From assembly GCA_020847275.1 (NCBI GenBank), contig JADLCI010000007.1, positions 27,814 through 91,813 of the forward strand: 64,000 nt of DNA, in the 5' to 3' direction. The first letter of the stretch is position 1, and each line of letters begins with the position of its first letter. The notes below the pieces were generated by a model. That model did not search any database. It was not told the DNA's origin and saw only the letters and a program-made list of their open reading frames with translations. Positions 1,166 through 63,072 of the stretch are shown in pieces. Both the position numbers and the translations under genes were made by a program. This stretch comes from Candidatus Nomurabacteria bacterium (GTDB lineage: Bacteria; Patescibacteriota; Minisyncoccia; Phycocordibacterales; JACOZG01).

Positions 1166-1936
1166 TCATTGTGGAAATTCCATGGCCAGCTCATTGGAGT
1201 GGAAAAACTCATAGGCCAGACGCCCGAAGCTGTAATTATGACCACCAAGTTCTATCTCTGAACCACCAACTTGAGGGTTAATCTTTGGTTGAGAATTAGC
1301 GAAACCAATGTTAAAGAGGGTTGCTAGGATTTCTGGTTGATTTGAAATATCAAAGCCAGCCACTTGCCATTGAGCAATTATTTCCTTGACGTAAATGGCT
1401 GTGTAAAGGTAGGCAAAATAATGATTTTTCTCATCGGCAATTCTCGAGAAACGCTCTTGTCCATAATTTTCAGTGGCAAAGTCCAGCAGATGAGCATATT
1501 TTTCTCCGGGGAAAAAGGGCGAGCTTTTGTCTTGTAAATTTTTTTCAATTTGTTCAGCTGTTTCCGGTTTTAATCCAGCCACTCCCCAAGAAAATTGGGT
1601 TTGGTTGCCCAGAATTTTTAAGGGTAGAAAAACTTGTTTGAAGATTTCTCGCTCGTCGTTGAAGAGGCGCAATTGTTCCGGTATCACCATTGCCACGATT
1701 AGCCGTGGTGAGATGTCTGTTGCCATGGAAGCCTGTTCAATTGCCGATTTGTCTTTAATTAGAGCCACTTTTAGGGTTTGCCATTCTTCGGTATTTATCC
1801 AAATCGGCGATGGTCTGATCTCTAGCTCCACTTCGTCCACCAGGCCAGCTACATTTGTCCAGCCGAATTTCACCGCGAAGAAAACGGAAGCATAGAGAGC
1901 GATAATTGTTGTCACGATACTTATCCCCAGTTTCAT
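1166..1936 (-). CDS. Hypothetical protein with an N-terminal signal-anchor
   Basis: Long ORF 1166..2137. The likely start is the internal Met (MKLGISIVTTIIALYASVFF, nt 1936) that lies just before a TM helix. The ORF-track start at 2137 would overlap the divergent gene at 1988. I do not recognise the family. Confidence 0.5.
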   Translation of the reverse strand: MKLGISIVTTIIALYASVFFAVKFGWTNVAGLVDEVELEIRPSPIWINTEEWQTLKVALIKDKSAIEQASMATDISPRLIVAMVIPEQLRLFNDEREIFKQVFLPLKILGNQTQFSWGVAGLKPETAEQIEKNLQDKSSPFFPGEKYAHLLDFATENYGQERFSRIADEKNHYFAYLYTAIYVKEIIAQWQVAGFDISNQPEILATLFNIGFANSQPKINPQVGGSEIELGGHNYSFGRLAYEFFHSNELAMEFPQ

Positions 1937-1963
1937 GGTGGGTAGCATAACACAGACGCGCGT

Positions 1964-1973
1964 GGGGGGGGGG
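1964..1973. repeat. G10 homopolymeric tract in the divergent promoter region, directly abutting a TATAAT box
   Basis: Ten consecutive G at 1964-1973 are followed by TATAAT at 1974-1979, and the ATG of the PKD protein gene is at 1988. Confidence 0.8.
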
Positions 1974-1979
1974 TATAAT
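1974..1979 (+). promoter_or_regulatory. Candidate -10 box (TATAAT) 8 nt upstream of the start codon; implies a leaderless or near-leaderless transcript
   Basis: Perfect TATAAT at 1974-1979, ATG at 1988. No Shine-Dalgarno sequence would fit between them. Confidence 0.45.
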
Positions 1980-1987
1980 AGTGGTAT

Positions 1988-3646
1988 ATGAAAAAATATA
2001 AATTTCTGGCCAGCCTTGTATTGGCCACGGTCCTTCTTTTCAGTGGTACCCTGGCTCAAGCTCAAGCGATTCCAGCCAATAATATCTGTAGCATTATCGT
2101 TCTTCTCGGCCAGCTGAATGTCATCACACCGCAACAAATCATCACGCTCAATAATGCGCTTGGTTGCGGTAACACTCCTCAGCCACCTGGTCTTCCTCCC
2201 GGCTGTACCAGCACTAGTGGCTTCAGTCCCACGACGGGTCAGTCTTGTGGAGGTGGGTCTACTCCTGATTTAGCCTCTTTTAGTATTGTTTCACCAAATC
2301 GTGACACCATCTGGCGGAATGATACTGCCGGAGAATGGCTAACAATTAAGTGGAAATATGCTCCTGGAAGCATTGACGGATCTGCTCGAGTTCGTGTTGA
2401 TTTAGTGGGAACACGATACGGTCTCGCAAGTGGTCAGAGGGTAGATGAGGGGCAAGTGAGAATTAATATTTCTCCCGATATCCAGCCAGGCAGGTATCAG
2501 ATCAAAATCTCTGACTTCGATAACGGAAAGATTTTTGCTTACAGTGACTACTTTACTGTCACCTCTGGCGGAACGACGGGTAACCGGCCACCAGTAGTCT
2601 CTGGTGTTTCTGGGCCGACAGTCTTGCGGGTGGGGGAGACGGGCACTTGGAGTGTCCGTGCTAGCGATCCGGAGAATCAGTCCTTGAGCTACAGTGTTTT
2701 ATGGGGTGATGAGAATCTGCTTGCCTATAGCGTGGCTGGACCAAGAACAGTTTCGCAGTCAGCTACCTTCACTCACAGTTATGCAACTCCGGGTAACTAC
2801 TCCCCAAATTTCACTGTCACCGACTCTTTCGGCCAATCAGCCAGAACGAGTTTGAGTGTCCAGGTGGGTGGTGGTAATACCCCAATTCCAGCTCCGACGG
2901 TTCTCCTAAATGTAAATGGTCATGTCGCCACTGGCTACGATAGTCCGAGTGTGAATATTGGTAGCATTTCAACCGCCGTGATTAACTGGTCGAGTACTCC
3001 AAATGCCACCAGGTGCAATACTTACGGACAGGGTTCTCTTCGTCTTACTGATGGAACGATGTGGGATTTTTACAACCTGCCAGTCTCTGGTTCACGAACA
3101 TTCCAAACTTCTGGTCAGATTGATGGCTTGGGCAATACGATAACCGCCGCAACTATAGGTATACAGTGCTGGAGTAACGACTTTGCCAGCAGCGACAGTA
3201 AAGGACTCGTGGTCTCTTGGTCTGGCGGCTCGACCCCACCACCTCCGCCACTACCAACCCCACAATCTTCTACCATTTCTGTTGAGAGACCTCGTTCGGG
3301 CGATAATTGGCGCTTGGGTGAGAATAGGGAGATTACTTGGGAAGATAGCGGTTCAACCGGATTCAACTACAAAGTTTATGTTCGTGGAGACAGTCCCGCC
3401 TCCGCTTACCAACTGATTGGTCAAACAGCAACGAATAAATTACGCTGGACAGTTGGTCCTGGCGGACAATTTCCGGTTGGATCTTATAGGGTGGAGGTTA
3501 TAAAAGATGATGGTTTGGGTTACAACAAGAATCTCAGTGGCCAATTCACCATCTCTTCTGGCGGTCATGCTTCAATCTACAATGAAGGCCAGATGGCAAA
3601 CATTTCTTCATCCATTCGTTCGTTACTTCAACTTTTTGGACGGTAG
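1988..3646 (+). CDS. Secreted protein with PKD domain(s) and Ig-like domains
   Basis: Signal peptide MKKYKFLASLVLATVLLFSGTLAQAQA. PKD signature WGDEN...FTHSYATPGNYSPNFTVTDSFGQSA. Ig-like repeats and a proline-rich linker PPPPLPTP. Confidence 0.75.
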   Translation: MKKYKFLASLVLATVLLFSGTLAQAQAIPANNICSIIVLLGQLNVITPQQIITLNNALGCGNTPQPPGLPPGCTSTSGFSPTTGQSCGGGSTPDLASFSIVSPNRDTIWRNDTAGEWLTIKWKYAPGSIDGSARVRVDLVGTRYGLASGQRVDEGQVRINISPDIQPGRYQIKISDFDNGKIFAYSDYFTVTSGGTTGNRPPVVSGVSGPTVLRVGETGTWSVRASDPENQSLSYSVLWGDENLLAYSVAGPRTVSQSATFTHSYATPGNYSPNFTVTDSFGQSARTSLSVQVGGGNTPIPAPTVLLNVNGHVATGYDSPSVNIGSISTAVINWSSTPNATRCNTYGQGSLRLTDGTMWDFYNLPVSGSRTFQTSGQIDGLGNTITAATIGIQCWSNDFASSDSKGLVVSWSGGSTPPPPPLPTPQSSTISVERPRSGDNWRLGENREITWEDSGSTGFNYKVYVRGDSPASAYQLIGQTATNKLRWTVGPGGQFPVGSYRVEVIKDDGLGYNKNLSGQFTISSGGHASIYNEGQMANISSSIRSLLQLFGR

Positions 3647-3652
3647 AATCTG

Positions 3653-3661
3653 TGTTATAAT
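3653..3661 (+). promoter_or_regulatory. Extended -10 promoter (TGnTATAAT) 8 nt upstream of the ATG of the TraD-like gene; leaderless architecture
   Basis: TGTTATAAT spans 3653-3661 and the ATG is at 3670. The spacing is identical to the 1974/1988 case. Confidence 0.45.
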
Positions 3662-3669
3662 CTGGCAAT

Positions 3670-5307
3670 ATGGCGGAAATGCCGATTGTCAAAGATAGAA
3701 CTTACTTTGCCGAAACTGATTTCCGAGGCAAGCGAACGAAGTTTGGCATTAAGTTTGAAGACCGTGCTCGGCATGTCTATGTGATTGGAAAGACAGGCAT
3801 GGGAAAAAGTACCATGCTGGAGAATATGGCCGTCCAAGATATCGCCGATGGGCACGGTATGGCTTTCATCGACCCGCACGGTAGTACGGCCGAGAAGTTA
3901 TTGGAATATGTGCCAGAGCATCGCATTAAGGATGTGATCTATTTTGCACCGTTCGATTTAGAGAATCCGATTTCTTTCAATGTTATGGAGGACGTGGGGG
4001 CCGACCAACGACACTTGGTGGTGAATGGTTTGATGAGCGCGTTTAAGAAACTCTGGGTAGATGCCTGGAGTGCGCGCATGGAATATATTCTAACCAACAC
4101 CTTGCTTGCCTTACTTGAGTATCCCAACTCCACCCTGCTTGGAGTGAATCGGATGCTTGCCGACAAGGTTTATCGCCAGAAAGTGGTGGATAATATCAAG
4201 GATCCCACCGTCCGTTCTTTCTGGGTTGATGAATTTGCCAAGTACACAGAGCGTTTCGCGGCCGAAGCCACGCCGGCGATTCAGAATAAAATCGGGCAAT
4301 TTACGGGGAATCCGCTGATTCGCAATATCATTGGGCAAACAAAATCGTCTTTCAGTTTTCGTCAAGCAATGGACGAACGAAAAATTTTAATCATCAATCT
4401 ATCCAAAGGCAGAATGGGCGAGGGGAATGCCAATCTACTTGGCTCAATGATTATCACTAAGATTTATCTAGCGGCGATGAGCCGAGCCAACTTGTCGCCA
4501 GCCGAGATGCGCTTGGTGCCCCCGTTCTATTTCTATGTCGATGAATTTCAATCCTTTGCCAACGAATCCTTTGCCAACATTCTTTCTGAGGCAAGGAAAT
4601 ATAAATTATCTCTGACAATCGCCCATCAGTATGTAGAGCAGATGTCGGAAGAGGTACAGGCGGCCGTTTTTGGTAACGTTGGGACGACGGTGGCTTTCCG
4701 GGTTGGTCCGCTTGATGCCGAAATTTTCGAGAAGATTTTTGCTCCCACTTTTAGTATGGAGGATATGGTTAATCTCGGCTTCGCTCAGATCTATTTAACG
4801 ATGATGATCGACGGGGTGGGCTCCCAACCATTTTCGGCGATTACTTTACCACCGATCACACCTCTAGCACGTTCCTATCACGATGAAATTATTTCTTGGA
4901 CACGAAAAACCTATGCGCGGCCTCGGGACATGGTTGAGAAGGACATCGGTAATTGGCATGCGACGCCATCTACGCCAAAGACGTTTGTTCCACCTCTTCC
5001 GCCGAGAACGGCTCAAGTTTCACGACCAAATCCACCAGTTTCTCGAGTGGACGCAGTGACGCCAAAAAAATTTATTGAACCGGAGAAGGTTGTTTCCCTC
5101 AAATCGCTTGAGCAGAAGGTGGAGACAAGAGAGAAGAGTACTGGGCGACACAGTGCTGATTTACGTGATGTGATTGCATCGGTTCAGAAGGAAGTTGCCG
5201 GGGGTCAAGCAAAAACCTTAGAAGAAAAAGCGCCAGAGAAGACAGCTGAAAAAAGACCAAGAAACGAAATTCCCGAAAATGAACTGAAGAAGATGTTGGA
5301 AGTATGA
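3670..5307 (+). CDS. P-loop ATPase of the type IV secretion coupling-protein superfamily (TraD/TraG/VirD4-like, DUF87/HerA-like), stand-alone
   Basis: Walker A motif VIGKTGMGKST. The overall layout matches the T4SS DNA-transfer family proteins that are common as orphans in CPR genomes. The C-terminal tail is charged and low-complexity. Confidence 0.6.
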   Translation: MAEMPIVKDRTYFAETDFRGKRTKFGIKFEDRARHVYVIGKTGMGKSTMLENMAVQDIADGHGMAFIDPHGSTAEKLLEYVPEHRIKDVIYFAPFDLENPISFNVMEDVGADQRHLVVNGLMSAFKKLWVDAWSARMEYILTNTLLALLEYPNSTLLGVNRMLADKVYRQKVVDNIKDPTVRSFWVDEFAKYTERFAAEATPAIQNKIGQFTGNPLIRNIIGQTKSSFSFRQAMDERKILIINLSKGRMGEGNANLLGSMIITKIYLAAMSRANLSPAEMRLVPPFYFYVDEFQSFANESFANILSEARKYKLSLTIAHQYVEQMSEEVQAAVFGNVGTTVAFRVGPLDAEIFEKIFAPTFSMEDMVNLGFAQIYLTMMIDGVGSQPFSAITLPPITPLARSYHDEIISWTRKTYARPRDMVEKDIGNWHATPSTPKTFVPPLPPRTAQVSRPNPPVSRVDAVTPKKFIEPEKVVSLKSLEQKVETREKSTGRHSADLRDVIASVQKEVAGGQAKTLEEKAPEKTAEKRPRNEIPENELKKMLEV

Positions 5308-6350
5308 ATCGTCCACGAGTCCTCATTTTTTCACTAGCTTATTTCCCCTTTGTCGGTGGGGCGGAGGTTGCGGTCAAGGAATTAACTGATCGTTTGGGTG
5401 GATATTTTGAATTCGAGATAATTTCAGCTGATATCAAAAACTTCTGGTCAAAATATTTTTTCCCTTTCTGGGCTTCTCGGCAGGCTAAGCGGCAACACAG
5501 GCTAAGAAAATACGATTTAGTCTGGTCGATCATGGCGAATCAGGCAGGGATGGCCGGTGCTTTGTTCAAAAAGTATCATCCGGGGATCCCTTTTCTGCTT
5601 ACCCTCCAAGAGGGGGATGATTTGGACAGTTTTTTTTACCGTCTGCGTTTGCTTGCCCCTAGGTTGTTTGGGGTTTTTGCTCGCCCAGACCAGATTCAGG
5701 TGATTTCAAACTATCTAGCAGGTTGGGCAAAGAAAATGGGTGCCCGTTGTCCCATTGTGGTTATTCCAAATGGAGTTGATCTGAGCAAGTTTGGAAATCG
5801 AGAGGGTAATCTTGAGAAAGTGATTATTACAACATCACGGTTGGTGAAGAAAAACGGAATAGATTCTTTGGTCCGCTCACTCGCTTTTTTACCAGACGAT
5901 GTTAAACTGCAAATCCTTGGCCTTGGGCCAGAGGAGAAAGCGTTGAGGCGCCTGGTTACCAGTCTTCAACTGTCCGCCAGAGTCTCATTTTTGGGCCAGA
6001 TTGAGAGTAAGAACGTGGGTCAATACTTATCTCATGCCACTGTTTTTGCGCGTCCTTCGCGCTCGGAGGGGCTGGGGAACTCCTTTCTTGAGGCGATGGC
6101 GGCTGGATTGCCTGTTATTGCCACACCGGTTGGTGGAATCACTGATTTTTTGAGAGAAGGGGAGACAGGCTGGTTTTGCGAGGTCAACAACCCAAGATCC
6201 ATTTCTGAAAAGGTGAAATTCATTTTAGCGCCAGAGAATCAAGAACAAGTTACTCGGATAGTTAGCAATGCGCGGAAAATGGTTTATGAAAATTACGATT
6301 GGAATAAATTAGCGGAGAGATTTACTGGCTTATTGAAACAAATGTTATGA
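5304..6350 (+). CDS. Glycosyltransferase family 4 (GT-B)
   Basis: C-terminal GT4 signature EGLGNSFLEAMAAGLPVIATPVGGITDFL...GETGWF. The ATGA overlaps the upstream stop. Confidence 0.8.
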   Translation: MNRPRVLIFSLAYFPFVGGAEVAVKELTDRLGGYFEFEIISADIKNFWSKYFFPFWASRQAKRQHRLRKYDLVWSIMANQAGMAGALFKKYHPGIPFLLTLQEGDDLDSFFYRLRLLAPRLFGVFARPDQIQVISNYLAGWAKKMGARCPIVVIPNGVDLSKFGNREGNLEKVIITTSRLVKKNGIDSLVRSLAFLPDDVKLQILGLGPEEKALRRLVTSLQLSARVSFLGQIESKNVGQYLSHATVFARPSRSEGLGNSFLEAMAAGLPVIATPVGGITDFLREGETGWFCEVNNPRSISEKVKFILAPENQEQVTRIVSNARKMVYENYDWNKLAERFTGLLKQML

Positions 6351-6889
6351 GAATAGTAATCGCTACGGGAATTTATCCGCCCCAGATTGGAGGACCAGCG
6401 CAATATGCGAAAAATTTGGCCGAAGAGTTCATCAAAAAGGGACACAGGGTTAAAATTTTGACTTACCGGCTGGAGAAGCACTTACCTTCTGGAGTTAGAC
6501 ATTTTTATTTTTTTGCCAAGTTGATATTTGCCCTCTGGCGAGTTGATTTTATTTTAGCGCTAGATACTTTTTCCGTTGGGTTGCCAGCCGTTTTGGCGGC
6601 TAGATTGGTTGGTAAAAAGATAATGATTAGGACAGGCGGGGATTTTCTTTGGGAAGGTTACGTGGAACGGACTGGTCATTTGGTTTTATTGCGGGAGTTT
6701 TATGAGAATGTTCGGGGAGGGTCAGTCAGGCTAAATTTCAAAGAGAAGGCTATTTTTGGTTTGACAAAATGGGTAATACATAAAGCTCAAATGATAGTGT
6801 TTAGTACCGAATGGCAAAGGGATATTTGGTCTAAACCGTATCAGTTGAGCCGACAGAAGACGAAAATTATTGAAAATTATTATGGCTAA
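6347..6889 (+). CDS. GT4 glycosyltransferase, N-terminal (acceptor) Rossmann half only; split gene
   Basis: MRIVIATGIYPPQIGGPAQYAKNLAEEF is a typical GT4 N-terminus. The ORF ends after 180 aa, where the next ORF continues the same protein family. Confidence 0.55.
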   Translation: MRIVIATGIYPPQIGGPAQYAKNLAEEFIKKGHRVKILTYRLEKHLPSGVRHFYFFAKLIFALWRVDFILALDTFSVGLPAVLAARLVGKKIMIRTGGDFLWEGYVERTGHLVLLREFYENVRGGSVRLNFKEKAIFGLTKWVIHKAQMIVFSTEWQRDIWSKPYQLSRQKTKIIENYYG

Positions 6890-7331: not shown

Positions 7332-8281
7332 AGGTTTTAATGATTTCCACTGATTCAAAAATTTTCGAACCCCTGAGCGAGGTTCGGTTACGGATGATTA
7401 GTCAGGCCGAAAGTTTTGGCAAGCTCACAATTGCGATTATCGGCAAGAAAAGTTTTTTACCACAAGTAATTAACGACAAGCTGACGGTGTTTTCTCTCGG
7501 ACGTCTGGAGTCTTTTTTCTGGTGCCCGATGAGGGATTATGAACTAGTTACGAGTCAAAACCCCTTCGAGCACGGCTTAATTGGCTGGCTGTGGGCCGGG
7601 AAAATAAATGCCAAATTACAGCTTCAGATTCATACAGATTTTCTCAATCCTTATTTTGCCCAGGAGTCTCTTCTGAACAAAATACGGTTGCGACTAGCAA
7701 AGTTTTTATTGCCACGGGCTGACAGCGTTCGAGTTGTTAGCCAGCGAATTGCTGATTCGCTTGTTGGCGCAGGAATCAGATTAAGACAGAAACCGGTGGT
7801 TCAGCCAGTCAAGATTGATCTCGAAAAAATCAAAAATGAACCGATAAAAATAGATTTACATGACAGATATTCGCAGTTTAAGAAAATAGTTTTAATGGCA
7901 TCTCGTCTGACACGAGAAAAAAATATTGACCTAGCCATTCGGGCGATGAATTCGATTATTAAATCAAGGCCTGGCACCGGTCTGGTCATTGTTGGTTCTG
8001 GACCGGAAGAGGGGAGACTAAAACAACTGGTGAAACAACTGAAGCTAGAAAAAAATGTTTTTTTTGAGTCGTGGACCAACAATCTATCGTCTTTTTATAA
8101 AACAGCCGACCTGTTTCTTTTGACTTCATTTTATGAGGGATATGGAAGGACAATTGTGGAAGCAATGGCTTGTGGTTGTGTTGTTGTTTCGACCGACGTT
8201 GGAGTGGCGAGGGAAGTGGGGGCGATTATCTCTGGGGACAACATTACTGACTTGGTGGAGACACTGGAAAAAATATTATGA
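7328..8281 (+). CDS. Glycosyltransferase family 4
   Basis: LTSFYEGYGRTIVEAMACGCVVVSTDVGVAREV is an E-x7-E-type GT4 motif. Confidence 0.8.
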   Translation: MKVLMISTDSKIFEPLSEVRLRMISQAESFGKLTIAIIGKKSFLPQVINDKLTVFSLGRLESFFWCPMRDYELVTSQNPFEHGLIGWLWAGKINAKLQLQIHTDFLNPYFAQESLLNKIRLRLAKFLLPRADSVRVVSQRIADSLVGAGIRLRQKPVVQPVKIDLEKIKNEPIKIDLHDRYSQFKKIVLMASRLTREKNIDLAIRAMNSIIKSRPGTGLVIVGSGPEEGRLKQLVKQLKLEKNVFFESWTNNLSSFYKTADLFLLTSFYEGYGRTIVEAMACGCVVVSTDVGVAREVGAIISGDNITDLVETLEKIL

Positions 8282-19140: not shown

Positions 19141-20982
19141 ATGTCAATTTTTTCTAAAGAAATATTTGTTGTCTCGGAATTAAGACATATTGACGAAGCT
19201 TGTTTGCAATCTGGACGAGGAAAGACAATCCTCTGTTTTGACTATTTAGTTGAACAGGAACTGATAAAAAAGAATGTCCCACATCTTTCGGCGACAGATT
19301 TCGCAGACCGAGAAGGAGGCGAGGAAGAGTGGTGGAAACTTTCTCACCAGATTGCGGGTGACTGGTATCGTTTACCGACCATGAAGTTTTTCGAGTACCA
19401 GAGTATCCGAATTGCCGAAGCGCCAGAACCACTAATGCAGGCCTATCTGGCAAGGATATTTTATTATGTAAGATTATATTCTGTTCTTAAAAAAGATCGT
19501 CCAGATTCTCAATTGATTATTCCTGTCCCCACCGTCAGTGTATCATCATCACCAGACTGTTTGGCGGCGTTTCACCCGTGGGCAATTATAGACGCAGCAC
19601 GGATGGTGGGTTTGTCGGTTACAACAACAGATAATCGCACAAAAATTCGGTCATATGTATTTCCTAAAACCACGTGGAAGATTTTTATTCTGTGGCTATT
19701 CAATGTTTTTATTGGTTTCGCGCCCCCGCGACGTTTTAAGGTTTATTCCAGTGAATATTGGGCACACCTGTCCTCGGTTGTACCTTATTTAGACGACGCG
19801 GAACTTATACTTTTCGAGAGCAAGGAATTTTATAGGATACCATGGAAAAAAATTCTGAAACATCGTATTCGCGTTCGATATTCGGATGGGATAGTTAGTC
19901 GGTCGGACGAAAACAGAATTAGGAAAATCGCAGAGAAATTTGAAAGTGGTTGGAAGGATGCAAAAAAAGATATCGCACACTATCTTTCTGGTATATGTGA
20001 GAATTTAGAATGGGACCCAATACTCGAGGCCTGCGAACATATTATAACGTATGCGCCACGGGTTGTTGCCGATATAGACTCTCTGCGTAGCATTATGCTA
20101 GAAGAGAAACCAGACATCGTGCTTCAAATGGCATCGGTCGGTGGACCACAGCACTATTTCTTCCTCATGGCCTGTGTTGCGCGACAACTTGGAATAACCT
20201 CTGTTGAATTGCAACATGCGACGGCGACCATTGACCCCCGTTCCGTATTTAGCCGTCTTGAGACGGACTATTTGTTGACTTATGGCCCCGATATTAATTT
20301 GTGGCATGAACGCTTGGGACACGCCCATAATCGACTCGTTGCTGTTGGTTCACCGCGTTTTGATAAATATATTAATGAGCGTGCCCAAGGTCTTGAAAGG
20401 GGGAAAAAATTATTTAGGCAACTCGGTCTTGATGTTCGTAGGCCAGTTCTCTTCGTGGCTGTTCCTTTTTCTGACAACTTTGCGTCGGCGGTTGACTCCT
20501 ATCAGCTTGCCAGCTTTTTTAAGTCGGTCCGTGAAATACAGGACAGAATAAGCGGTCTGCAGATAATTTTTAAATGTCGTGCTCGTAGAGATGTTGCTGT
20601 TACCCAGAAATATCTATACGAATTGTTTCGAGGCGATTGGGTCGTATCTGCTAGCGAAGATATCTTTGCGCTTCTATCTGCGAGCGACGCGGTTGTTTGT
20701 AATAACTCAACGGTGATCTATCAGGCCGTCTTAACGAGAAGGCCGCTCGTTCTCTATCCTTGGAAATTTTTTGATTCATATCATGCACATGTCTACGCAC
20801 CGTTAATCCCTATTTTTTATAACCCAGAAGAGGCTGTCCTTGCGGTCTCGCGTATTTTCACAGACAAGGCATATCGTGACGATCTTCTGTTGCGTCAGGA
20901 ACAGTTTCTCGGGGGGTATTCTTTTGACGGAAAGTCTTCTCAGCGAGTAGCGAAAACTGTTAAGTTGCTTGCGAAAAGATAG
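19141..20982 (+). CDS. TagB/TagF-like GT-B transferase, paralog of the upstream gene
   Basis: VELQHATATIDP, VGSPRFDKY, VLFVAVPFSDN and DAVVCNNSTVIYQAVLTRRPLV share motifs with 17206..19131. Confidence 0.5.
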   Translation: MSIFSKEIFVVSELRHIDEACLQSGRGKTILCFDYLVEQELIKKNVPHLSATDFADREGGEEEWWKLSHQIAGDWYRLPTMKFFEYQSIRIAEAPEPLMQAYLARIFYYVRLYSVLKKDRPDSQLIIPVPTVSVSSSPDCLAAFHPWAIIDAARMVGLSVTTTDNRTKIRSYVFPKTTWKIFILWLFNVFIGFAPPRRFKVYSSEYWAHLSSVVPYLDDAELILFESKEFYRIPWKKILKHRIRVRYSDGIVSRSDENRIRKIAEKFESGWKDAKKDIAHYLSGICENLEWDPILEACEHIITYAPRVVADIDSLRSIMLEEKPDIVLQMASVGGPQHYFFLMACVARQLGITSVELQHATATIDPRSVFSRLETDYLLTYGPDINLWHERLGHAHNRLVAVGSPRFDKYINERAQGLERGKKLFRQLGLDVRRPVLFVAVPFSDNFASAVDSYQLASFFKSVREIQDRISGLQIIFKCRARRDVAVTQKYLYELFRGDWVVSASEDIFALLSASDAVVCNNSTVIYQAVLTRRPLVLYPWKFFDSYHAHVYAPLIPIFYNPEEAVLAVSRIFTDKAYRDDLLLRQEQFLGGYSFDGKSSQRVAKTVKLLAKR

Positions 20983-21034
20983 GGGCTCTCGTTCCCTTGT
21001 TGAGGTGGTATTTTTGTGTATACTTAATTCTGTG

Positions 21035-22054
21035 ATGAGTACCCAACAACTTAACGGTAAAACCGTCCTCATTACCGGAGGGACTGGTTCTTTTGGCAGG
21101 AATTTTTCTGAATATATTCTTGCGAATTCGAAGCTAAAGAAGCTTATTATTTTCTCTCGTGATGAGTTGAAACAATCAGAAATGGCCGCAGAAATGAAGG
21201 ATGAACGTTTGCGGTTTTTTATTGGTTGTGTCCGTGATCTATCTAGGCTTAGACGTGCTTTCACGGGGGTTGATATTGTTGTGCATGCGGCTGCCTTGAA
21301 ACAGGTGCCAGCACTTGAGTACAACCCCTTTGAGGCGGTGAAGACCAATATTCTCGGCAGTCAAAATGTAATTGAGGCGGCGATTGATCAGGGTGTAAAG
21401 AAAGTTCTTTTGGTTTCGACCGACAAAGCAGCAATGCCAGTTAATCTCTATGGTTCCACGAAGTTGTGCGCGGAGAAGCTTTTTATTGCTGGTAACTCCT
21501 ACAGTGCTAATGGAGATACACGTTTCAGTGCTGTTCGTTACGGAAATATTGTTGGTAGCCGGGGAAGTATCGTTGAAAAATTAGTTCTAGAGAAGGGGGC
21601 TCATACCGTTCATATTACTCACGAGAACATGACTCGTTTCTGGATGGATTTAGAACAGGCATTCCAGATTGTCCTAGCTGCGATTGATGCGATGGAAGGA
21701 GGAGAGATTTTTATACCTAAGGCTCCAGCAATGAAGTTAACTGATGTTTTTAATCTCCTGGCGCCTGGTGCTAAGCGTAACATTGTTGGCGTTCGGCCGG
21801 GAGAGAAAATGCACGAAGTTTTATTGACGAAGGAGGAAGCGCGTCACGCGGTTGAACTCAAAGAACATTTTGTTGTCTTGCCCGAAAATGTCAGTTCGTT
21901 GAGACAGAAGAAAGGACTTCAGAAATTTTTGAAACAAGGTAAGCCGCTAGCGACAGACTTTCACTTTTCAAGCAATGAGGGTGCTAGGCAGATGTCTTCA
22001 AAAGCGCTTCTCCAAATGGTGTCTCGTCTAGAAAAAACGATAAGAGACAAATGA
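21035..22054 (+). CDS. pseB: UDP-N-acetylglucosamine 4,6-dehydratase (inverting), PseB/FlaA1 family
   Basis: KTVLITGGTGSFGRNF, IIFSRDELKQSEMAAEM, DIVVHAAALKQVP...YNP, NLYGSTKLCAEKLF and RPGEKMHEVL are collinear with H. pylori FlaA1/PseB as I remember it. Confidence 0.88.
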   Translation: MSTQQLNGKTVLITGGTGSFGRNFSEYILANSKLKKLIIFSRDELKQSEMAAEMKDERLRFFIGCVRDLSRLRRAFTGVDIVVHAAALKQVPALEYNPFEAVKTNILGSQNVIEAAIDQGVKKVLLVSTDKAAMPVNLYGSTKLCAEKLFIAGNSYSANGDTRFSAVRYGNIVGSRGSIVEKLVLEKGAHTVHITHENMTRFWMDLEQAFQIVLAAIDAMEGGEIFIPKAPAMKLTDVFNLLAPGAKRNIVGVRPGEKMHEVLLTKEEARHAVELKEHFVVLPENVSSLRQKKGLQKFLKQGKPLATDFHFSSNEGARQMSSKALLQMVSRLEKTIRDK

Positions 22055-23193
22055 TCCCCTATTCCACCCAAGATATTAATGGGTCTGATATTCGGGCGGT
22101 TGTGAGGGTGTTACGCTCGGGATGGTTGACCCAGGGTCCAGCGGTGGTTAAATTTGAGAAAGCTATTGCAGAGAAGGTTGGTGTGCGCTTTGCTGTAGCG
22201 TTCAATTCTGGTACTGCCGCACTTCACGCAGCATATTTTGCTGCTGGTGTAGGTGGTGGTGATGAGGTTATTGTGTCCGCTCTTTCGTTTGCTGCCACGG
22301 CCAACGCGGCCCTGTATCTTAATGCGAAGCCAATTTTTGTTGATTCTGATATCGTGACTGGCAATATGAGTGTCGCTGATGCTATCAAAAAAATAACAAA
22401 TAAAACTAAGGCAATTGTCCCCGTTGACTATGCTGGTCGACCGGTTGATTTACGGGCATTTCGATTATTGGCAAGGAAACATGGGATAACTTTGATAGAA
22501 GATGCCGCGCAGGCGCTTGGATCAAAGTACGGTGGAAAATTGGTGGGGGTTCAAGCCGACATGACCATGTTCAGTTTCCATCCAGTGAAGTCAATTACCA
22601 CGGGCGAAGGGGGAGTAATTGTCACCGATAATCAGAAATTTGACAAGGCAATGCGCCTGTTCCGTAGTCACGGTATTAGCAGAGATGTAAAAACATTTTC
22701 ACGAAAAAACAACGGGGAATGGTACCAGGAGATGAAAGAACTTGGGTTTAATTATCGCATGCCAGAGATGTCGGCGGCGCTTGGTTGGAGTCAGTTGAAA
22801 CGTCTAGATTCTTTTATTTTAAAACGCCAGCTTGCGGCGGATCGATATCGTAAGTTGTTTGCCGGAGTAAGTAACATCATCATTCCACCAGTTGAGGGTA
22901 TTTATGAAAAGTCGGCATGGCATCTGTATCCTGTTAGACTGTCTCCATCTATTGCAAATAGGCGCGATGAAGTTTTTGCTAAGATGCGCAAGGCCGGAAT
23001 TGGTGTGCAGGTTCATCACCTTCCGATTTATCGCCACCTCTATTACGAGAGATTGGGTTATAAAAAAGGGTCTTGCCCAAATGCGGAAGAGTTTGTTGCT
23101 TCAGAAATATCCATCCCGCTATTTCCAAAGATAACTTTTCAACAGCAGAAATTCATTTCAGTTACACTAAAGAACATAATTGCTTCATTATGA
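22051..23193 (+). CDS. pseC: DegT/DnrJ/EryC1 family PLP-dependent sugar aminotransferase (PseC-like)
   Basis: LTQGPAVVKFEKAIAE...FNSGTAALH. A PLP lysine lies in the SFHPVKSITTGEGG context. The gene follows pseB with an ATGA overlap. Confidence 0.82.
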   Translation: MIPYSTQDINGSDIRAVVRVLRSGWLTQGPAVVKFEKAIAEKVGVRFAVAFNSGTAALHAAYFAAGVGGGDEVIVSALSFAATANAALYLNAKPIFVDSDIVTGNMSVADAIKKITNKTKAIVPVDYAGRPVDLRAFRLLARKHGITLIEDAAQALGSKYGGKLVGVQADMTMFSFHPVKSITTGEGGVIVTDNQKFDKAMRLFRSHGISRDVKTFSRKNNGEWYQEMKELGFNYRMPEMSAALGWSQLKRLDSFILKRQLAADRYRKLFAGVSNIIIPPVEGIYEKSAWHLYPVRLSPSIANRRDEVFAKMRKAGIGVQVHHLPIYRHLYYERLGYKKGSCPNAEEFVASEISIPLFPKITFQQQKFISVTLKNIIASL

Positions 23194-24521
23194 AGAGAGA
23201 TTTCAGAAAAGGCGGGGGACAAAAGCTTTGGCGGAAAGCGAAAGGTCTTATACCTGGTGGAAATCAACTTTTATCAAAAAGAAGTGAAATGTTTTTACCT
23301 GAACAATGGCCTTCCTATTACTCAAAAGCAAAAGGCATTGAGGTCTGGGATTTAGATGGTAACCGCTTTGTTGACATGTCTATTATGGGTGTTGGGGCGT
23401 GTCTTCTTGGCTACGGTGATCCTGATGTTGATCGCGCCGTAAAGAGGGCCGTAGAAACTGGTGTCGCGTCTACTCTCAATGCGCCAGAAGAAGTTGAACT
23501 TGCCGAACTGTTGTGTAAAATCCATCCTTGGGCTGATATGGTTCGTTATGCACGTTCTGGAGGAGAGGCGATGGCAATTGCCATCCGAATTGCGAGGGCG
23601 TCAACGGGCAGGGATGTGATTGCTTTTTGTGGTTATCATGGTTGGTCGGACTGGTATTTATCAGCAAATTTATCTGATGATGACAAGCTCGACGGCCACC
23701 TGCTTCCCGGTCTTGAGCCGAAGGGTGTGCCGCGTGGTCTTAAGGGAACACTCTTTCCATTTCACTATAATTCGATTGAGGAATTGGAAAAAATCGTAGC
23801 AGAACAGGGGCGTAGACTTGCGGCAATTGTGATGGAGCCAATGAAGGGAGAGGAGCCCAAGAATCATTTTTTGCATCAAGTGCGAGATTTGGCAGACAAG
23901 GTGGGCGCTGTCCTTATTTTCGATGAGATTACAATTGGCTTTAAAATGACATATGGTGGCGCTCACTTGCTCTGTGGTGTGAATCCAGATATTGCCGTGT
24001 TTGCTAAGGCGATTAGTAATGGTTATGCCATGGCGGCAATTATCGGGAATAAGAAAGTTATGCAGGCAACACAGACCACCTTTATTTCAAGTACTAATTG
24101 GACGGAACGTATTGGGCCTGTCGCGGCTCTGGCGACTCTTAAAAAAATGAAAAAATTAAATGTTTCTCGACGACTTAAGGAGGTGGGGGAACGTGTTCTG
24201 GAGATTTGGATTAATGCGGCAACACGACACAACCTTGCCATCGCAACCGGTGGCCTCCCGCCCCTGAGAAGTTTTTCTTTTAAATACGGTGAGGATAGTC
24301 AGGCACTGAAGACACTTTTTGTGCAGGAAATGTTACAGAGGGGATTTTTAGCAACCAACATGCTCTTTGCTTCGTATGCCCACACCGACATTTTTTTGGA
24401 TAAGTATGAAAAAGCGATAGACAGAGTTTTTGCTTACATTAAGGATACCCTTGATACTGGAACATTGAAAAAGAGACTCAGGAGCCCTGTAGCCCATACC
24501 GGGTTTTCTCGGCTCAATTAA
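23190..24521 (+). CDS. Class III aminotransferase (glutamate-1-semialdehyde 2,1-aminomutase-like)
   Basis: GSRLWDLDGNRFVDMS-type N-terminus, ARSGGEAMAIAIRIARASTGRD and IFDEITIGFKMTYGGA. The ATGA overlaps the pseC stop. The track start is at 23073. Confidence 0.75.
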   Translation: MKRDFRKGGGQKLWRKAKGLIPGGNQLLSKRSEMFLPEQWPSYYSKAKGIEVWDLDGNRFVDMSIMGVGACLLGYGDPDVDRAVKRAVETGVASTLNAPEEVELAELLCKIHPWADMVRYARSGGEAMAIAIRIARASTGRDVIAFCGYHGWSDWYLSANLSDDDKLDGHLLPGLEPKGVPRGLKGTLFPFHYNSIEELEKIVAEQGRRLAAIVMEPMKGEEPKNHFLHQVRDLADKVGAVLIFDEITIGFKMTYGGAHLLCGVNPDIAVFAKAISNGYAMAAIIGNKKVMQATQTTFISSTNWTERIGPVAALATLKKMKKLNVSRRLKEVGERVLEIWINAATRHNLAIATGGLPPLRSFSFKYGEDSQALKTLFVQEMLQRGFLATNMLFASYAHTDIFLDKYEKAIDRVFAYIKDTLDTGTLKKRLRSPVAHTGFSRLN

Positions 24522-24525
24522 CATC

Positions 24526-25302
24526 ATGATCGCTTCAATCATCCAAGCACGAGTGGGTTCAACAAGATTGCCTGGCAAGATATTAAAGCCAATCTTGGGT
24601 GTGTCGATGCTTGGGCGAATGATTGAGCGAGTAAAGCGTGCGAAAAGGCCTGATGTGATAATCGTTGCGACAACCGAAAAACCAGAGGATGATGTAACGG
24701 TCCGATTGGCGAAGAAATGTGGCGTCATGGTTTTTCGTGGTAGCGAACGGGACGTATTAGATAGGTTTTATGGGGCGGCCAAGGAAGTGGGTGCGGACAT
24801 GGTAGTGCGCCTTACGGGGGATTGCCCCCTTATGGATCCAGCGGTGATTGATTTGGTCATTGATAGTTTTCAAGAATCGAGAAAAATATTCGACTATTGC
24901 AGTACACCAAGCAATTATCCCGAAGGTCTTGATGTGGAGATCTTTACTTTTTCCACGCTTGAAGAAATGGCTCACGAAGCTAGACTACCTTCGGAGCGTG
25001 AACACGTTTCCCTTTTTATTAAGAATCATTCGGACCGCTTCACGAGTAAATCATTGCGCGATGGTGATTCTGATAATTCTTCTATGCACTGGTCGGTTGA
25101 CACTCAAGCGGACTTTGACTTTGTAACGAAAATTTTTGAACGACTTTACCCAACCAATCCTTTTTTCGACAGAGAGGATATTCTTGCATTACTTACAAAA
25201 CATCAGGAAATTTTGGAGATAAATAAAGGCGGGACTGGTTATGAGGGTTTAGCAAAGTCTTTAAGGGAGGATGAAGAAGCCGAGAATAAATTGAAAGTAT
25301 GA
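24526..25302 (+). CDS. Acylneuraminate-type cytidylyltransferase (CMP-nonulosonate synthetase, PseF/SpsF-like)
   Basis: IIQARVGSTRLPGKILKPI is the CTP_transf_3 signature. LTGDCPLMDP is the second family motif. Confidence 0.75.
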   Translation: MIASIIQARVGSTRLPGKILKPILGVSMLGRMIERVKRAKRPDVIIVATTEKPEDDVTVRLAKKCGVMVFRGSERDVLDRFYGAAKEVGADMVVRLTGDCPLMDPAVIDLVIDSFQESRKIFDYCSTPSNYPEGLDVEIFTFSTLEEMAHEARLPSEREHVSLFIKNHSDRFTSKSLRDGDSDNSSMHWSVDTQADFDFVTKIFERLYPTNPFFDREDILALLTKHQEILEINKGGTGYEGLAKSLREDEEAENKLKV

Positions 25303-26225
25303 CCTTGGGGAAAAATAAATTGGTACTTGGTACAGCACAGCTTGGCATGAATTATGGACTTCATAATTCTCATGGGCAACCCTCAAAGGAAGAGTCTTTT
25401 TCTATTTTGGATAGAGCTTTTTCTGTCCATATAAACACTTTTGATACTGCGCATTCTTATGGCGCATCCGAAGATGTAATCGGTGCTTGGGTGCAGGACC
25501 GATCTATGGCTAACAGGGTTAAGTTAATTTCTAAGATGAAACCAGACGCTATAAATGATTACCCTGATGGAATAAAATTCGTAGACGTTGTGCGACGGGA
25601 ATTGGATAAATCTCTCGCACGACTTCAGGTGGAAACTCTCGATGGTTATTTGTTCCATTCGCCACACTATATATATTTTGATCACATGATGGATGGACTA
25701 CAAAAGGTTCAAGATGCTGGGCTAGTGAAAAATATCGGGGTTTCTGTCTATAACGAATTAGACGCATTGCGGGCTGTTGAGCTGGGTGTAAATTATGTGC
25801 AGGTTCCCTACAATGTATTTGATCAACGGCTCCACCGTACCGATTTTTTTGATATTGCAAAAAATAATAAGATCACCATCTTCGCTCGCAGCCCGTTCCT
25901 ACAGGGTCTTTTGCTAATGCAACCCAGTGAATTACCAGGCCATCTTTCTTATTTCTCTTCCCACCTCGAACAGTTCATTGCTCTCACTAAACGCTATAAT
26001 TTGACACAGGTTGAGTGTGCGCTCCGATTCGTCGATGTTATGTGTCCCGCTGAGCACATTGTATTTGGTGTTGATACATTAACACAACTTGACGAGGGTG
26101 TTCGCGTTATGGGGGCGACTACTTCAGGTGCGGACGATGAATGGGTGATTGAAGCGCGGGATATTTTTAAAGACCTTAATTCCGGAATGATTAACCCAAG
26201 TTTGTGGGGTAAAATAAAGCGATAA
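25299..26225 (+). CDS. Aldo/keto reductase
   Basis: LVLGTAQLGMNYG...FDTAHSYGASE is the AKR N-terminal consensus. Confidence 0.8.
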   Translation: MTLGKNKLVLGTAQLGMNYGLHNSHGQPSKEESFSILDRAFSVHINTFDTAHSYGASEDVIGAWVQDRSMANRVKLISKMKPDAINDYPDGIKFVDVVRRELDKSLARLQVETLDGYLFHSPHYIYFDHMMDGLQKVQDAGLVKNIGVSVYNELDALRAVELGVNYVQVPYNVFDQRLHRTDFFDIAKNNKITIFARSPFLQGLLLMQPSELPGHLSYFSSHLEQFIALTKRYNLTQVECALRFVDVMCPAEHIVFGVDTLTQLDEGVRVMGATTSGADDEWVIEARDIFKDLNSGMINPSLWGKIKR

Positions 26226-26296
26226 TTAATTGAAATAGGATGAGACGGTGTAGCCGAAGACAAAAGACGGCTATCGGTGTAAAATGAAACAACGTT

Positions 26297-27331
26297 ATGA
26301 ACAACAAGACTGTCAACATTGGAGGTCGCTGTGTAGGAGAAGGTCAACCTGTTTTTATTATCGCAGAGGTTAGCGCAAACCATCGCGGGAAGATTGAAAC
26401 CGCACTATCTGCTATTGACATAGCGGCAGATGCTGGTGCGGATGCAGTGAAGTTTCAACACCTAACCCATAATAAAATTGCCGCTGAACCGCTTTCTGAT
26501 TTTTATAAGTCTGCAGAATTGCCAGACGGTTGGACAGAAAAACTTGTTGAACGGTCAAAGAAAAAAAATATTTTTTTTCTATCAACGCCATTTGACCTAG
26601 AAGCCGTGGATCTTCTCGATGAAATTGGGGTCCCAGCTTTTAAGGTCGCGTCTTATGAGATGACCGACGATGTTTTGTTGCGACATATTTCTAGAAAGGG
26701 GAAACCGATTATACTTTCTACTGGTATGGCTTATCTTGAAGAAGTTAAACACGCGATTAACGTTATTAAGCAAGAAGATAATGAACAGGTAATTGCGCTC
26801 CATTGCGTTTCTCTCTACCCCCCTGAGTTTAGAGACCTGAATCTCCGAGTAATAGAAACAATGCGTCGAGAATTGGGCTGTCCAATCGGGTATTCTGATC
26901 ATGCGAATCCGTCATCGAATGTGGCAACTCTTGGCGCAATTGCTCTTGGTGCTTGCGTGATTGAACGTCACATAACCGACTCACAAGAAGGTGGCAGTAA
27001 TGATGATAAAAATTCAATGACGCCAGAGCAACTGAAACAAATGGTCATAGAGATTCGTGATCTTTCGGCGGCTCTCTCTGGTGCGGGAGTTAAGGCACCA
27101 GTGTCTGATCCTGGTCGTGGCGTGGACGAGATAAGAGAGCGTAGTACACGTCGTTCACTCTATGCTGTACGCGATATTGTTGAAGGGGAAGCTATGTCTG
27201 CAGACATGATTGTCACATTGAGGCCCATGAAAGGCATTGAACCAAAGGATTTTCAGCAAGTCATGGGTCGAAAGACGCTTCGTGCTATTTCAGCACGTTC
27301 GCCGATTACCTGGCAAGATATAGAGAGATGA
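26297..27331 (+). CDS. Nonulosonic acid synthase (NeuB/PseI/LegI family) with C-terminal SAF domain
   Basis: PVFIIAEVSANHRGKIETAL, AGADAVKFQ, GYSDH and a C-terminal SAF-like domain. Confidence 0.9.
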   Translation: MNNKTVNIGGRCVGEGQPVFIIAEVSANHRGKIETALSAIDIAADAGADAVKFQHLTHNKIAAEPLSDFYKSAELPDGWTEKLVERSKKKNIFFLSTPFDLEAVDLLDEIGVPAFKVASYEMTDDVLLRHISRKGKPIILSTGMAYLEEVKHAINVIKQEDNEQVIALHCVSLYPPEFRDLNLRVIETMRRELGCPIGYSDHANPSSNVATLGAIALGACVIERHITDSQEGGSNDDKNSMTPEQLKQMVIEIRDLSAALSGAGVKAPVSDPGRGVDEIRERSTRRSLYAVRDIVEGEAMSADMIVTLRPMKGIEPKDFQQVMGRKTLRAISARSPITWQDIER

Positions 27332-40966: not shown

Positions 40967-41429
40967 ATATCTACACGAAGTAGCTATTACCGCGATAATC
41001 TTGAAGGATGGTAAGTATCTAATCACCAGACGTTCGGTAAATAAGAAACGCTGGCCGGGGATGTGGACGGTGCCGGGCGGTAAACTAGAAACAGGAGACT
41101 ATATTAATTCACCGAAGGATACGCACGGATATTGGTACAATGTTTTAGAAAAAGTTTTACGACGAGAAGTAAAGGAAGAGGTTGGTTTGGAGATCTCTAA
41201 TATCGAGTATCTAACTAGTCTCGCCACAATTCACGAAGGGAATAATCCTTCTCTCGTAATATCATGTATTGCCGACTACGCTGGGGGGGAAGTGGTCTTG
41301 CAGGAGGAAGAGGCAGACCTTTTTTCTTGGGTTAATCTCGATGAGGCCAGGGAATATGAATTAATTGATGGCATCTATGATGAGCTTATTCTCGCCGAGA
41401 ATAGGAGATTGGGTATTAAAAACGAGTAG
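40956..41429 (+). CDS. NUDIX hydrolase
   Basis: Nudix box GGKLETGDY...LRREVKEEVGLEI. The ATG overlaps the secA 3' end by 11 nt. Confidence 0.85.
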   Translation: MENKYLHEVAITAIILKDGKYLITRRSVNKKRWPGMWTVPGGKLETGDYINSPKDTHGYWYNVLEKVLRREVKEEVGLEISNIEYLTSLATIHEGNNPSLVISCIADYAGGEVVLQEEEADLFSWVNLDEAREYELIDGIYDELILAENRRLGIKNE

Positions 41430-43960: not shown

Positions 43961-44863
43961 ATGAGTTATATGAAAAATTATATGATTCGTTTGGTGTTTC
44001 TGGGCCTGGTTTTAGGTGGGCTTGTTAATGTTGGGTATACAGAAGTTTATGCCCAGATGGCCCTAACTTCAGTGATCAATTCTCCAACCGAAGGGCAAAC
44101 TGTTCTTGTCAACCAGCCGTTAACATTTTCTGGTTCGGCGACGGGTGGCAACCCCACTTTCTATGGTTATCTGTGGAATTTTGGGGATGGAACTTTTGCT
44201 GGTGCTACCAATTTTAGTAAAACCTACAACACCGCGGGCCCCAAGACAGTTTCTTTGACGGTCACTGATTTCACTGGCGCTCAAGCGATTACCACACGAC
44301 ACATTATTGTGAACCCCGTTGTTAATCCTGATGCACCGACAGTAGACCTTATGGTGAATGGCGGCAATGGCCCCTTAACTGTTGATACCGGCGCTAGTCC
44401 CACCCTTACCTGGACATCGACGAACGCAACTTCCTGCACTGCCTCCAGTGCTTGGTCTGGGAGTAGGGAATTAAATGGTAGTGAGTCAGTTGGCCCACTT
44501 AGTACCAGCGGTACGTTTGTTTATACGCTTTCTTGTGCTGGCGCAGGAGGGTCAGCTTCCGATAGTGTTACCGTTAATGTTGGTACACCGGGTGGTCCCG
44601 TTACGCCTGTTATCAGTAATATTCAGGTAACGAATGTTACCCAGACGGGAGCCACGATTACCTGGGATACTAATATTTTGGCTGACAGTCGTGTAATCTA
44701 TGATACTGTTTCTCACCCCACACTTGGAACAGCGCCTAACTTTGGTTACGCATTCACTACCGACACTCTCAATGTCAGTCCAAAAGTGACCGCACACTCA
44801 GTGTCTGTCACTGGTCTTACACCCAATACCCAGTATTTTTTCCGAGTACTGTCCCAATCATAA
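43961..44863 (+). CDS. Secreted protein with PKD domain and a fibronectin-III-like C-terminal domain
   Basis: Signal/TM MIRLVFLGLVLGGLVNV. PKD motif GYLWNFGDGTFAGATNFSKTYNTAGPKTVSLTVTD. Fn3-like segment ITWDTNILADSRVIYD...TPNTQYFFRV. Confidence 0.65.
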   Translation: MSYMKNYMIRLVFLGLVLGGLVNVGYTEVYAQMALTSVINSPTEGQTVLVNQPLTFSGSATGGNPTFYGYLWNFGDGTFAGATNFSKTYNTAGPKTVSLTVTDFTGAQAITTRHIIVNPVVNPDAPTVDLMVNGGNGPLTVDTGASPTLTWTSTNATSCTASSAWSGSRELNGSESVGPLSTSGTFVYTLSCAGAGGSASDSVTVNVGTPGGPVTPVISNIQVTNVTQTGATITWDTNILADSRVIYDTVSHPTLGTAPNFGYAFTTDTLNVSPKVTAHSVSVTGLTPNTQYFFRVLSQS

Positions 44864-62979: not shown

Positions 62980-63053
62980 GCACGCGTAGCTCAGTTGGTT
63001 AGAGCACCGAGCTTATACCTCGGCGGTCCTTGGTTCGAATCCAAGCGCGTGCA
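62980..63053 (+). tRNA. tRNA-Ile with genomically encoded UAU anticodon
   Basis: Acceptor GCACGCG/CGCGTGC, D-arm GCTC-AGTTGGTTA-GAGC, anticodon arm CCGAG-CTTATAC-CTCGG (U33, TAT at 63014-63016, A37), T-arm CTTGG-TTCGAAT-CCAAG. Confidence 0.82.
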
Positions 63054-63072
63054 CAGAGTCTCTTTTCCCCTA

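Follow-up and report, generated by a model that had tools for sequence, protein, structure and literature searches.

A poly-G tract next to the -10 hexamer of a secreted PKD protein gene in a Paceibacteria-type bacterium: a candidate promoter-repeat contingency locus

Runs of at least eight G or C nucleotides are intrinsically hypermutable, and in Neisseria (porA, opc, fetA), Bordetella (fim) and Mycoplasma hyorhinis (vlp) surface proteins undergo phase variation through homopolymers located in promoter spacers. Patescibacteria form a huge and almost uncultured radiation of ultra-small bacteria that are thought to live attached to hosts, and to our knowledge the regulation and the variation of their attachment proteins are essentially unknown. 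A stretch of 64,000 nucleotides of Candidatus Nomurabacteria contig JADLCI010000007.1 (assembly GCA_020847275.1), in the following referred to as the window, contains ten consecutive G that are fused to a perfect TATAAT hexamer immediately upstream of a gene encoding a secreted protein with a PKD domain. This raises the question of whether such a tract is accidental, a static part of the promoter or, as proposed in the initial annotation of this DNA, a phase-variation switch. The analysis presented here shows a real, non-random promoter feature and, in it, a good candidate for what would be the first contingency loci of Patescibacteria based on a promoter repeat.

The G10 tract and the promoter of the PKD protein gene

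On the plus strand the G10 homopolymer occupies positions 1964-1973 and is directly followed by the consensus -10 hexamer TATAAT at 1974-1979, by an 8-nt discriminator or start region (agtggtat, 1980-1987) without a Shine-Dalgarno sequence (no GGAGG) and by the ATG at 1988. Direct reading confirmed these positions exactly as they had been annotated. The open reading frame (ORF) that begins here (1988-3646, plus strand) encodes a protein of 552 amino acids, and its description as a secreted PKD protein is borne out by a classical signal peptide at the N-terminus (MKKYKFLASLVLATVLLFSGTLAQAQA, residues 1-27) and by a Pfam match to PKD_4 with 38.3 bits (cutoff 27), next to a match to the Ig-like family Kre9_KNH with 37.4 bits (cutoff 24.6). 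Transcription is predicted to start at A1986, resulting in a leader of 2 nt, or at A1988, resulting in a truly leaderless mRNA. In relation to this promoter the tract extends from -13 to -22. It had been assigned to the spacer/-35 region, of which the spacer holds, while the -35 position is not reached by the run. It does lie, as noted before, within the region that the gene shares with a divergent minus-strand gene, and this region comprises just 39-51 bp.

No base forms a longer homopolymer in the window than these ten G, and no other run reaches nine nucleotides. The next-longest homopolymers are a single G7 (41283-41289), a single C7 (61059-61065), three A8 and six T8, and this run count agrees with the earlier statement that no second homopolymer of such length is present. 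The chance expectation for G/C runs of at least ten nucleotides per 64 kb is 0.05 assuming independent and identically distributed bases and 0.11 using a first-order Markov model. By chance about one to two such G/C runs occur per 1-Mb genome and the window alone is not decisive; the non-randomness of the tract is therefore derived from comparative data and not from the count in the window. Tandem Repeats Finder returned two-copy repeats only, i.e., no other contingency-type repeats were found in the window. A G-quadruplex was ruled out, as there is one lone G run and further G blocks are missing, and a known structured RNA was ruled out as well, as Rfam matches were at chance level only (E ≥ 0.23).

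The promoter itself was assessed using 959 non-redundant ORF starts from the window and about 1 Mb of related loci, considering hexamers that match TATAAT in at least five of six positions. The gap between hexamer and ATG peaks at 6, 7, 8 and 9 nt with 51, 28, 28 and 32 cases, respectively, meaning that 139 of 959 starts fall into this peak compared to a background of approximately six per offset. The consensus of the 139 peak promoters reads T-17 n T-15 G-14 n TAtAAT with A/T-rich spacers and a weakly T-rich -35 region; G occupies position -14 in 63% of them and position -13 in 32%. Judged from this geometry, leaderless initiation appears to be common in the clade, and the PKD gene is very probably transcribed from TATAAT at 1974-1979, which supports the earlier proposal of a leaderless transcript, or of one with a 2-nt leader. 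The normal design of this genome is seen directly downstream, where TGtTATAAT at 3653-3661 (plus strand) precedes the ATG at 3670 of a VirD4-like gene by 8 nt and carries no G tract. TATAAT-N8-ATG is also found in front of a minus-strand glycosyltransferase gene (12481/12467), TGgTATAAT-N10-ATG occurs with the TGn motif at 51234 and the ATG at 51253, and in several further operon-first genes in the window the distance between a -10-like hexamer and the ATG is 5-14 nt. Genes inside operons contain GGAG-type ribosome-binding sites instead.

Leaderless promoters of Actinobacteria and Deinococcus likewise place the -10 element 6-9 nt from the ATG without a Shine-Dalgarno sequence, and the clade consensus TnTGnTAtAAT resembles the TRTGn extended -10 of Gram-positive bacteria. 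Unlike both of these motifs, the promoter of the PKD gene retains G-14 alone, the G run taking the place of the rest. With G instead of T at -15 and -17, this promoter is not an extended -10 promoter as defined by T-15, G-14 and T-17. Among the 139 leaderless promoters a run of at least four G ending at -13 occurs once, namely at this locus.

Poly-G runs next to -10 hexamers in related DNA

The comparison covered about 1.1 Mb of related DNA including the window, made up of 80 VirD4-like loci from GTDB species as well as 24 loci from metagenomes that encode PKD homologues. Unique G runs of at least eight nucleotides were found in the window and at four more loci, namely G10-tga-TATACT in L022, G10-TATCAT in L090, G8-agag-TAAAAT in L084 and G8-ttg-TACTAT in L100. 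When one duplicate record is counted, a hexamer matching TATAAT in at least five of six positions follows within 0-5 nt in five of six G runs of this length, compared to a baseline of 3.0% across all positions and of 4.8% across non-coding ones. Moreover, every non-coding G run of at least seven nucleotides is followed by a -10-like hexamer that begins 0-4 nt downstream, and the one non-coding G7, located in L057, again reads G7-TATAAT. In comparison, none of six C runs is followed by a -10 hexamer on the same strand, nor is any of 24 when runs of at least seven are included. None of the G7 runs inside genes has an adjacent hexamer, and G runs of at least eight nucleotides are absent from coding DNA. 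G4-G6 runs are not enriched beside -10 hexamers, and a loose test of G runs of at least five nucleotides against signal-peptide genes is weakly significant (p = 0.012). Shorter tracts are found at genes of the PKD family, i.e., G6-TATAAT in L102 and G5-tta-TACAAT in L097, and relatives show TTG-type hexamers 15-19 bp upstream such as TTGTGT-17-TAAAAT in L084. Long G runs are over-represented at -10 sites in relation to the background, and the sequence comparison supports the view that the tract is a selected feature that did not arise by chance.

All five G runs of at least eight nucleotides precede genes whose large products carry PKD, TIG or Ig-like domains together with a signal peptide or a membrane anchor. 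These are, next to the protein of the window, a 389-aa TIG protein in L022, a 1290-aa PKD protein in L084, a 1111-aa PKD/peptidoglycan (PG)-binding protein in L100, which is followed by pilC and a pilin gene, and a PKD protein in L090, where a divergent gene is absent. A signal-peptide-like N-terminus is found in about 13% of ORFs only. Three of the five loci were identified via PKD homology, which inflates the association with gene function; the positional association with the -10 hexamer is unaffected by this ascertainment. L022 stems from the VirD4 set and not from the PKD set, and its tract is the sole G run of at least eight nucleotides in about 900 kb. The gene order of the window is repeated there: G10, a secreted protein (MKKY...) and a VirD4-like ATPase. 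Among the 80 VirD4-like loci, a tract-preceded gene for a secreted protein is found upstream in L022 only, and at most of these loci the upstream neighbor is an unrelated membrane protein of about 400 aa. Common ancestry of the G-tract promoters was ruled out, as in their alignment similarity is confined to the run, the hexamer and ATGAAAAAATA. Since the promoters are unrelated and the closest full-length homologues of the PKD protein lack the run, the tracts are convergent and not inherited.

Further observations were made at these loci. The proteins encoded behind G-tract promoters have a common N-terminal pattern of MKKY, a hydrophobic core and a helical Q(I/V)xxLLxxxG...I motif (window 1988-2170, L022 2976-3150, L100 625-800, L088 3554-3670), and the domains that follow differ, being PKD, TIG or PG-binding. 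In L084/L108 the genes of an extracytoplasmic function (ECF) sigma factor and of a putative anti-sigma protein of 401 aa diverge from the G8 promoter in front of the 1290-aa PKD protein gene; in L108 the sigma/anti-sigma genes are located at 1-1194 on the minus strand and the tract precedes the gene start at 1501 by about 106 nt. An ISL3 transposase is encoded downstream in L084/L108. In L057 a perfect 27-nt inverted repeat, ATTATA-CCCCCACAACATTCCAACATTC / GAATGTTGGAATGTTGTGGGGG(GG)-TATAAT, is located at 7751-7825 between a VirD4-like gene and an ArsR-like helix-turn-helix gene, and it looks like an operator or a bidirectional terminator with mirror-image -10 boxes.

Tract length, promoter geometry and competing explanations

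What such a tract might do is less certain than its presence. Tentatively, we favor the explanation that it acts as a slippage-prone modulator of expression, either as a contingency locus or as a rheostat, although this is a leading possibility and not an expectation. In this explanation, G10 forms the spacer of a genuine promoter with a -10 but no -35 element, which probably produces the leaderless or nearly leaderless mRNA of a secreted PKD/Ig-like surface protein. The locus is one of a class of 'G(n) + TAnnnT' promoters that recurs in related Patescibacteria in front of genes encoding large secreted Ig-like proteins and that arose there several times independently. In a minority of cells, slippage during replication would lengthen or shorten the tract and thereby move the upstream DNA, including a back-to-back divergent promoter at a distance of 24 bp, relative to the -10 hexamer. 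The shifted upstream DNA, or the properties of the spacer themselves, might then alter the output of the surface protein. We infer that the tract length varies and that this variation alters expression. A modulator is ranked first because pure G8-10 runs are unstable and are otherwise purged, yet they recur as pure homopolymers at one type of site and one type of gene, a pattern that is characteristic of contingency loci. Because a -35 element is absent here, the mechanism would not be the textbook change in -35/-10 spacing. Regarding the features of known contingency loci, the position of the tract, the class of the gene and the over-representation are all found, whereas two promoter elements whose spacing the tract could set are not. 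The locus would in this sense work like the promoter homopolymer contingency loci, of which it is a putative member. The interpretation given in the initial annotation is partly supported, as the tract is a real and non-random feature of the promoter of a secreted-protein gene.

Several observations weigh against a modulator. No TTG or -35-like hexamer is present for the PKD gene at any spacing in 1937-1963, and G at -13 and -14 is kept whatever the tract length, as the tract abuts the hexamer. The effect of gaining or losing one G is hard to predict because of these two properties, and the claim that slippage would alter the geometry of the promoter finds no obvious target. The closest full-length homologues of the PKD protein (P0010, P0002) are encoded within the secY-adk ribosomal region, without a tract, and a second, smaller secreted PKD_4 + fn3 gene within the window (43961-44863) possesses an ordinary promoter (ggaTATGAT-N5-ATG) without it. 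The locus of the PKD gene is known from one assembly record, and variability was examined at analogous loci that are represented on many contigs. The tract was G10 in five of five records of the L022 type, G8 in 14 of 14 of the L084 type, G6 in ten of ten of the L102 type and G8 in three of three of the L100 type, i.e., no length difference was found at four comparable loci in 32 assembly records from several projects. The flanks in these records are 99.2-100% identical, and they represent near-clonal consensus sequences in which minority alleles are invisible. Given this invariance, the dominant allele does not change frequently from sample to sample, whereas minority variants at 0.1-10% would be compatible with it. 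The result argues moderately against a fast on/off switch of the classical kind and agrees with a fixed element. As a separate observation, the contig of the record carrying P0109 (ERZ1426737, 1672 bp) begins 81 nt upstream of the L022-type gene and about 17 nt before its G10, which may reflect an assembly break next to the tract.

The constant consensus length is what would be expected if the tract was a static promoter element, i.e., a poly-G/poly-C block of set length. Such a block, standing in for the A/T-rich spacer and T-17/T-15, which are conserved elsewhere and are indeed replaced here, might make the promoter weaker or insulate it. Alternatively, it might block divergent transcription as the C-rich start region of a mirror-image TATTAT on the minus strand, and the nearly symmetric -10 hexamer does yield TATTAT on that strand. 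A third possibility is that a regulator specific to genes of surface proteins binds there. The ECF sigma/anti-sigma pair adjoining the L084 tract speaks for a fixed element, as does the G7-TATAAT of L057, which forms one arm of the palindrome in front of the ArsR-like gene and is operator-like rather than switch-like. However, a static GC-rich spacer needs no pure and mutagenic homopolymer, and pure runs of 8-10 nucleotides arose at least five times independently. Moreover, no candidate binding protein or common flanking motif was found, and both the length (G6, G8, G10) and the offset of the hexamer (0-4 nt) vary by locus, which argues against one precise site. We regard a fixed element as the less likely account, doubtful rather than dismissed. 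A neutral origin is still less probable. A short G run might have been seeded at the favored positions -14 and -13, where G is frequent in the leaderless promoters, and might have grown by slippage without harm in non-coding DNA. This fits to long runs missing from coding DNA, where frameshifts would follow, to a promoter that has no upstream element to be disturbed and to close homologues that do without a tract. It leaves unexplained why all five runs of at least eight nucleotides precede secreted Ig-like proteins, three of these having been ascertained by PKD homology. In addition, the run is separated by 3-4 nt from the hexamer in L022, L084 and L100 and is accordingly not seeded by G-14/-13 at these loci, and a G run of at least four nucleotides at -13 is found in just one of the 139 ordinary leaderless promoters.

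Two further explanations concern the other strand and the data themselves. The divergent gene (1166-1936, minus strand) encodes 256 amino acids with an N-terminal transmembrane helix and a weak, sub-threshold match to DUF1402; its plausible start is the ATG at 1936 (MKLGISIV...) or the in-frame ATG at 1948 and not the TTG of the mechanical minus-strand ORF, which spans 1166-2137 and crosses the tract region. Its candidate extended -10, TGtTATGCT at 1944-1952 (minus strand), lies 7 nt upstream of the ATG at 1936 in leaderless geometry. The candidate -10 hexamers of both strands are back to back and 24 bp apart, and ten of these 24 bp are the G/C run. As C10, the run could serve in the promoter or at the 5' end of the divergent gene: it falls at about -27 to -36 of the candidate leaderless promoter, i.e., in the -35 region of TGtTATGCT-N7-ATG, and an alternative -10-like TATTAT at 1975-1980 (minus strand) from a consensus scan, having TTTATA 16 bp upstream at 2002-1997, would put the minus-strand start inside the C run and might enable reiterative transcription. 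From the promoter of the PKD gene the run is not transcribed, as it lies upstream of the -10, and reiterative transcription does not apply on that side. The matches of the consensus scan in this region do not exceed the number in shuffled sequence; elsewhere the G run always shares the coding strand with the secreted-protein gene downstream of it, in L090 even without any divergent gene, and none of the 24 C runs mentioned above precedes a same-strand -10. A function on the minus strand is therefore judged to be very unlikely. Lowest of all ranks an artefact, be it poly-G from missing signal, a chimeric join or an error in homopolymer length, which we consider to be highly improbable. The locus stems from one contig of a metagenome-assembled genome (MAG), and the exact length is not guaranteed to within one nucleotide, but both flanking genes are intact and start 14-28 nt from the run, ten G are too short to join contigs at the usual k-mer sizes, equivalent G10 and G8 tracts were reproduced in 5, 14 and 3 independent assemblies of different projects, and the gene order matches that of L022.

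Genomic surroundings, related systems and biological meaning

The PKD protein is 100% identical to the NCBI entry 'hypothetical protein IT398_01540 [Candidatus Nomurabacteria bacterium]', which the homologue search returned as a single-member cluster on one 296-kb contig. Exact-protein look-ups for the PKD protein and its divergent neighbor matched no record, and a metagenome scan for relatives of the PKD protein yielded none above 57% local identity. The VirD4/TrwB-like ATPase gene downstream (3670-5307, plus strand) has its best relatives at 58-79% identity, all of them in Patescibacteria of the Paceibacteria group (Zambryski-, Vogel-, Kaiser- and Nomurabacteria MAGs), and the organism itself is a Paceibacteria-type Patescibacterium. 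The ATPase gene is followed at 5304-38029 by about 30 kb of surface-glycan genes encoding more than ten glycosyltransferases, methyltransferases and an ABC exporter, two CDP-glycerol glycerophosphotransferase-like proteins and a Wzy-like ligase with TPR repeats, as well as a nonulosonic-acid-type pathway at 20969-27331 (Polysacc_synt_2, DegT, CTP_transf_3, NeuB). Within this locus a perfect 10-bp tandem duplication (GAAAATTATT x2) is present at 6862-6881, exactly where two short ORFs meet (6347-6889 and 6870/6882-7331) that jointly represent one GT4-family glycosyltransferase; removal of one copy gives a single continuous ORF of 324 aa. Possible explanations are a pseudogene caused by a frameshift, a switch based on a reversible duplication, or a mistake in the assembly. 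Housekeeping genes including secA, gatB, typA, lepA, ftsH and murJ follow after the glycan locus, and mismatch-repair genes were not found within the window. A tRNA-Ile with the anticodon UAU, which is uncommon in bacteria, is encoded at 62980-63054 and would read AUA without lysidine modification.

Several known systems resemble the locus in part. In porA, fetA and opc of Neisseria meningitidis a G/C run of about 9-11 nt is likewise located just upstream of the -10 element of a surface-protein gene, and it is the sole long run in its neighborhood as is G10 here; the tract in Neisseria parts a recognizable -35 from the -10 and varies among isolates, whereas the promoter studied here has no -35 element and a predicted leaderless mRNA. 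The TA repeats of Haemophilus influenzae hifA/hifB lie in overlapping divergent promoters, which is similar in the short shared region, and the poly-C of Bordetella pertussis fim2/fim3, placed between an activator site and the -10, resembles G10 in lying between the -10 and the elements that act further upstream; in both cases the product is a surface structure. Both differ in the type of repeat and the dependence on an activator, none being known for the locus studied here, and in the window the candidate -10 hexamers are 24 bp apart. Mycoplasma hyorhinis vlp, with a poly-A spacer, likewise represents a surface-protein family of a host-dependent organism with a reduced genome, and the poly-T 'rheostat' of Helicobacter pylori sabA makes a graded instead of an on/off effect conceivable here too. 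The tracts of vlp and sabA consist of A/T and their variation was demonstrated experimentally, while the tract considered here consists of G. For the Gracilibacteria, which belong to the Candidate Phyla Radiation (CPR), a gene with a hypervariable 9-mer repeat was described for which variation was demonstrated at the level of reads (PMC6851277). That repeat is an intragenic tandem repeat and not a promoter homopolymer, and it is the sole case of repeat-driven local hypervariation in a CPR bacterium that was found in our literature searches. Full-text searches yielded no paper tying phase variation, slipped-strand mispairing or homopolymeric tracts to promoters of Patescibacteria/CPR, and the literature searches yielded no account of repeat-mediated phase variation in this phylum.

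As a result that is independent of the question of a switch, the analysis provides a usable promoter model for Paceibacteria, i.e., TnTGnTAtAAT followed by 6-9 nt and the ATG. If the poly-G promoters are switches, they would mark those surface proteins that are under fluctuating selection, be it by host range, phage or immune pressure. A further-reaching reading, in which G(n)-TAnnnT promoters with slippage-prone spacers at genes for large secreted Ig-like/PKD proteins constitute a phylum-wide and convergent contingency system of Patescibacteria that creates stochastic surface variation on leaderless promoters without -35 elements, is considered to be conceivable but rather unlikely. In this reading, obligate episymbionts would vary their likely host-attachment factors stochastically by a mechanism that does not depend on -35/-10 spacing, and the Candidate Phyla Radiation would gain its first described case of transcriptional phase variation mediated by a repeat.

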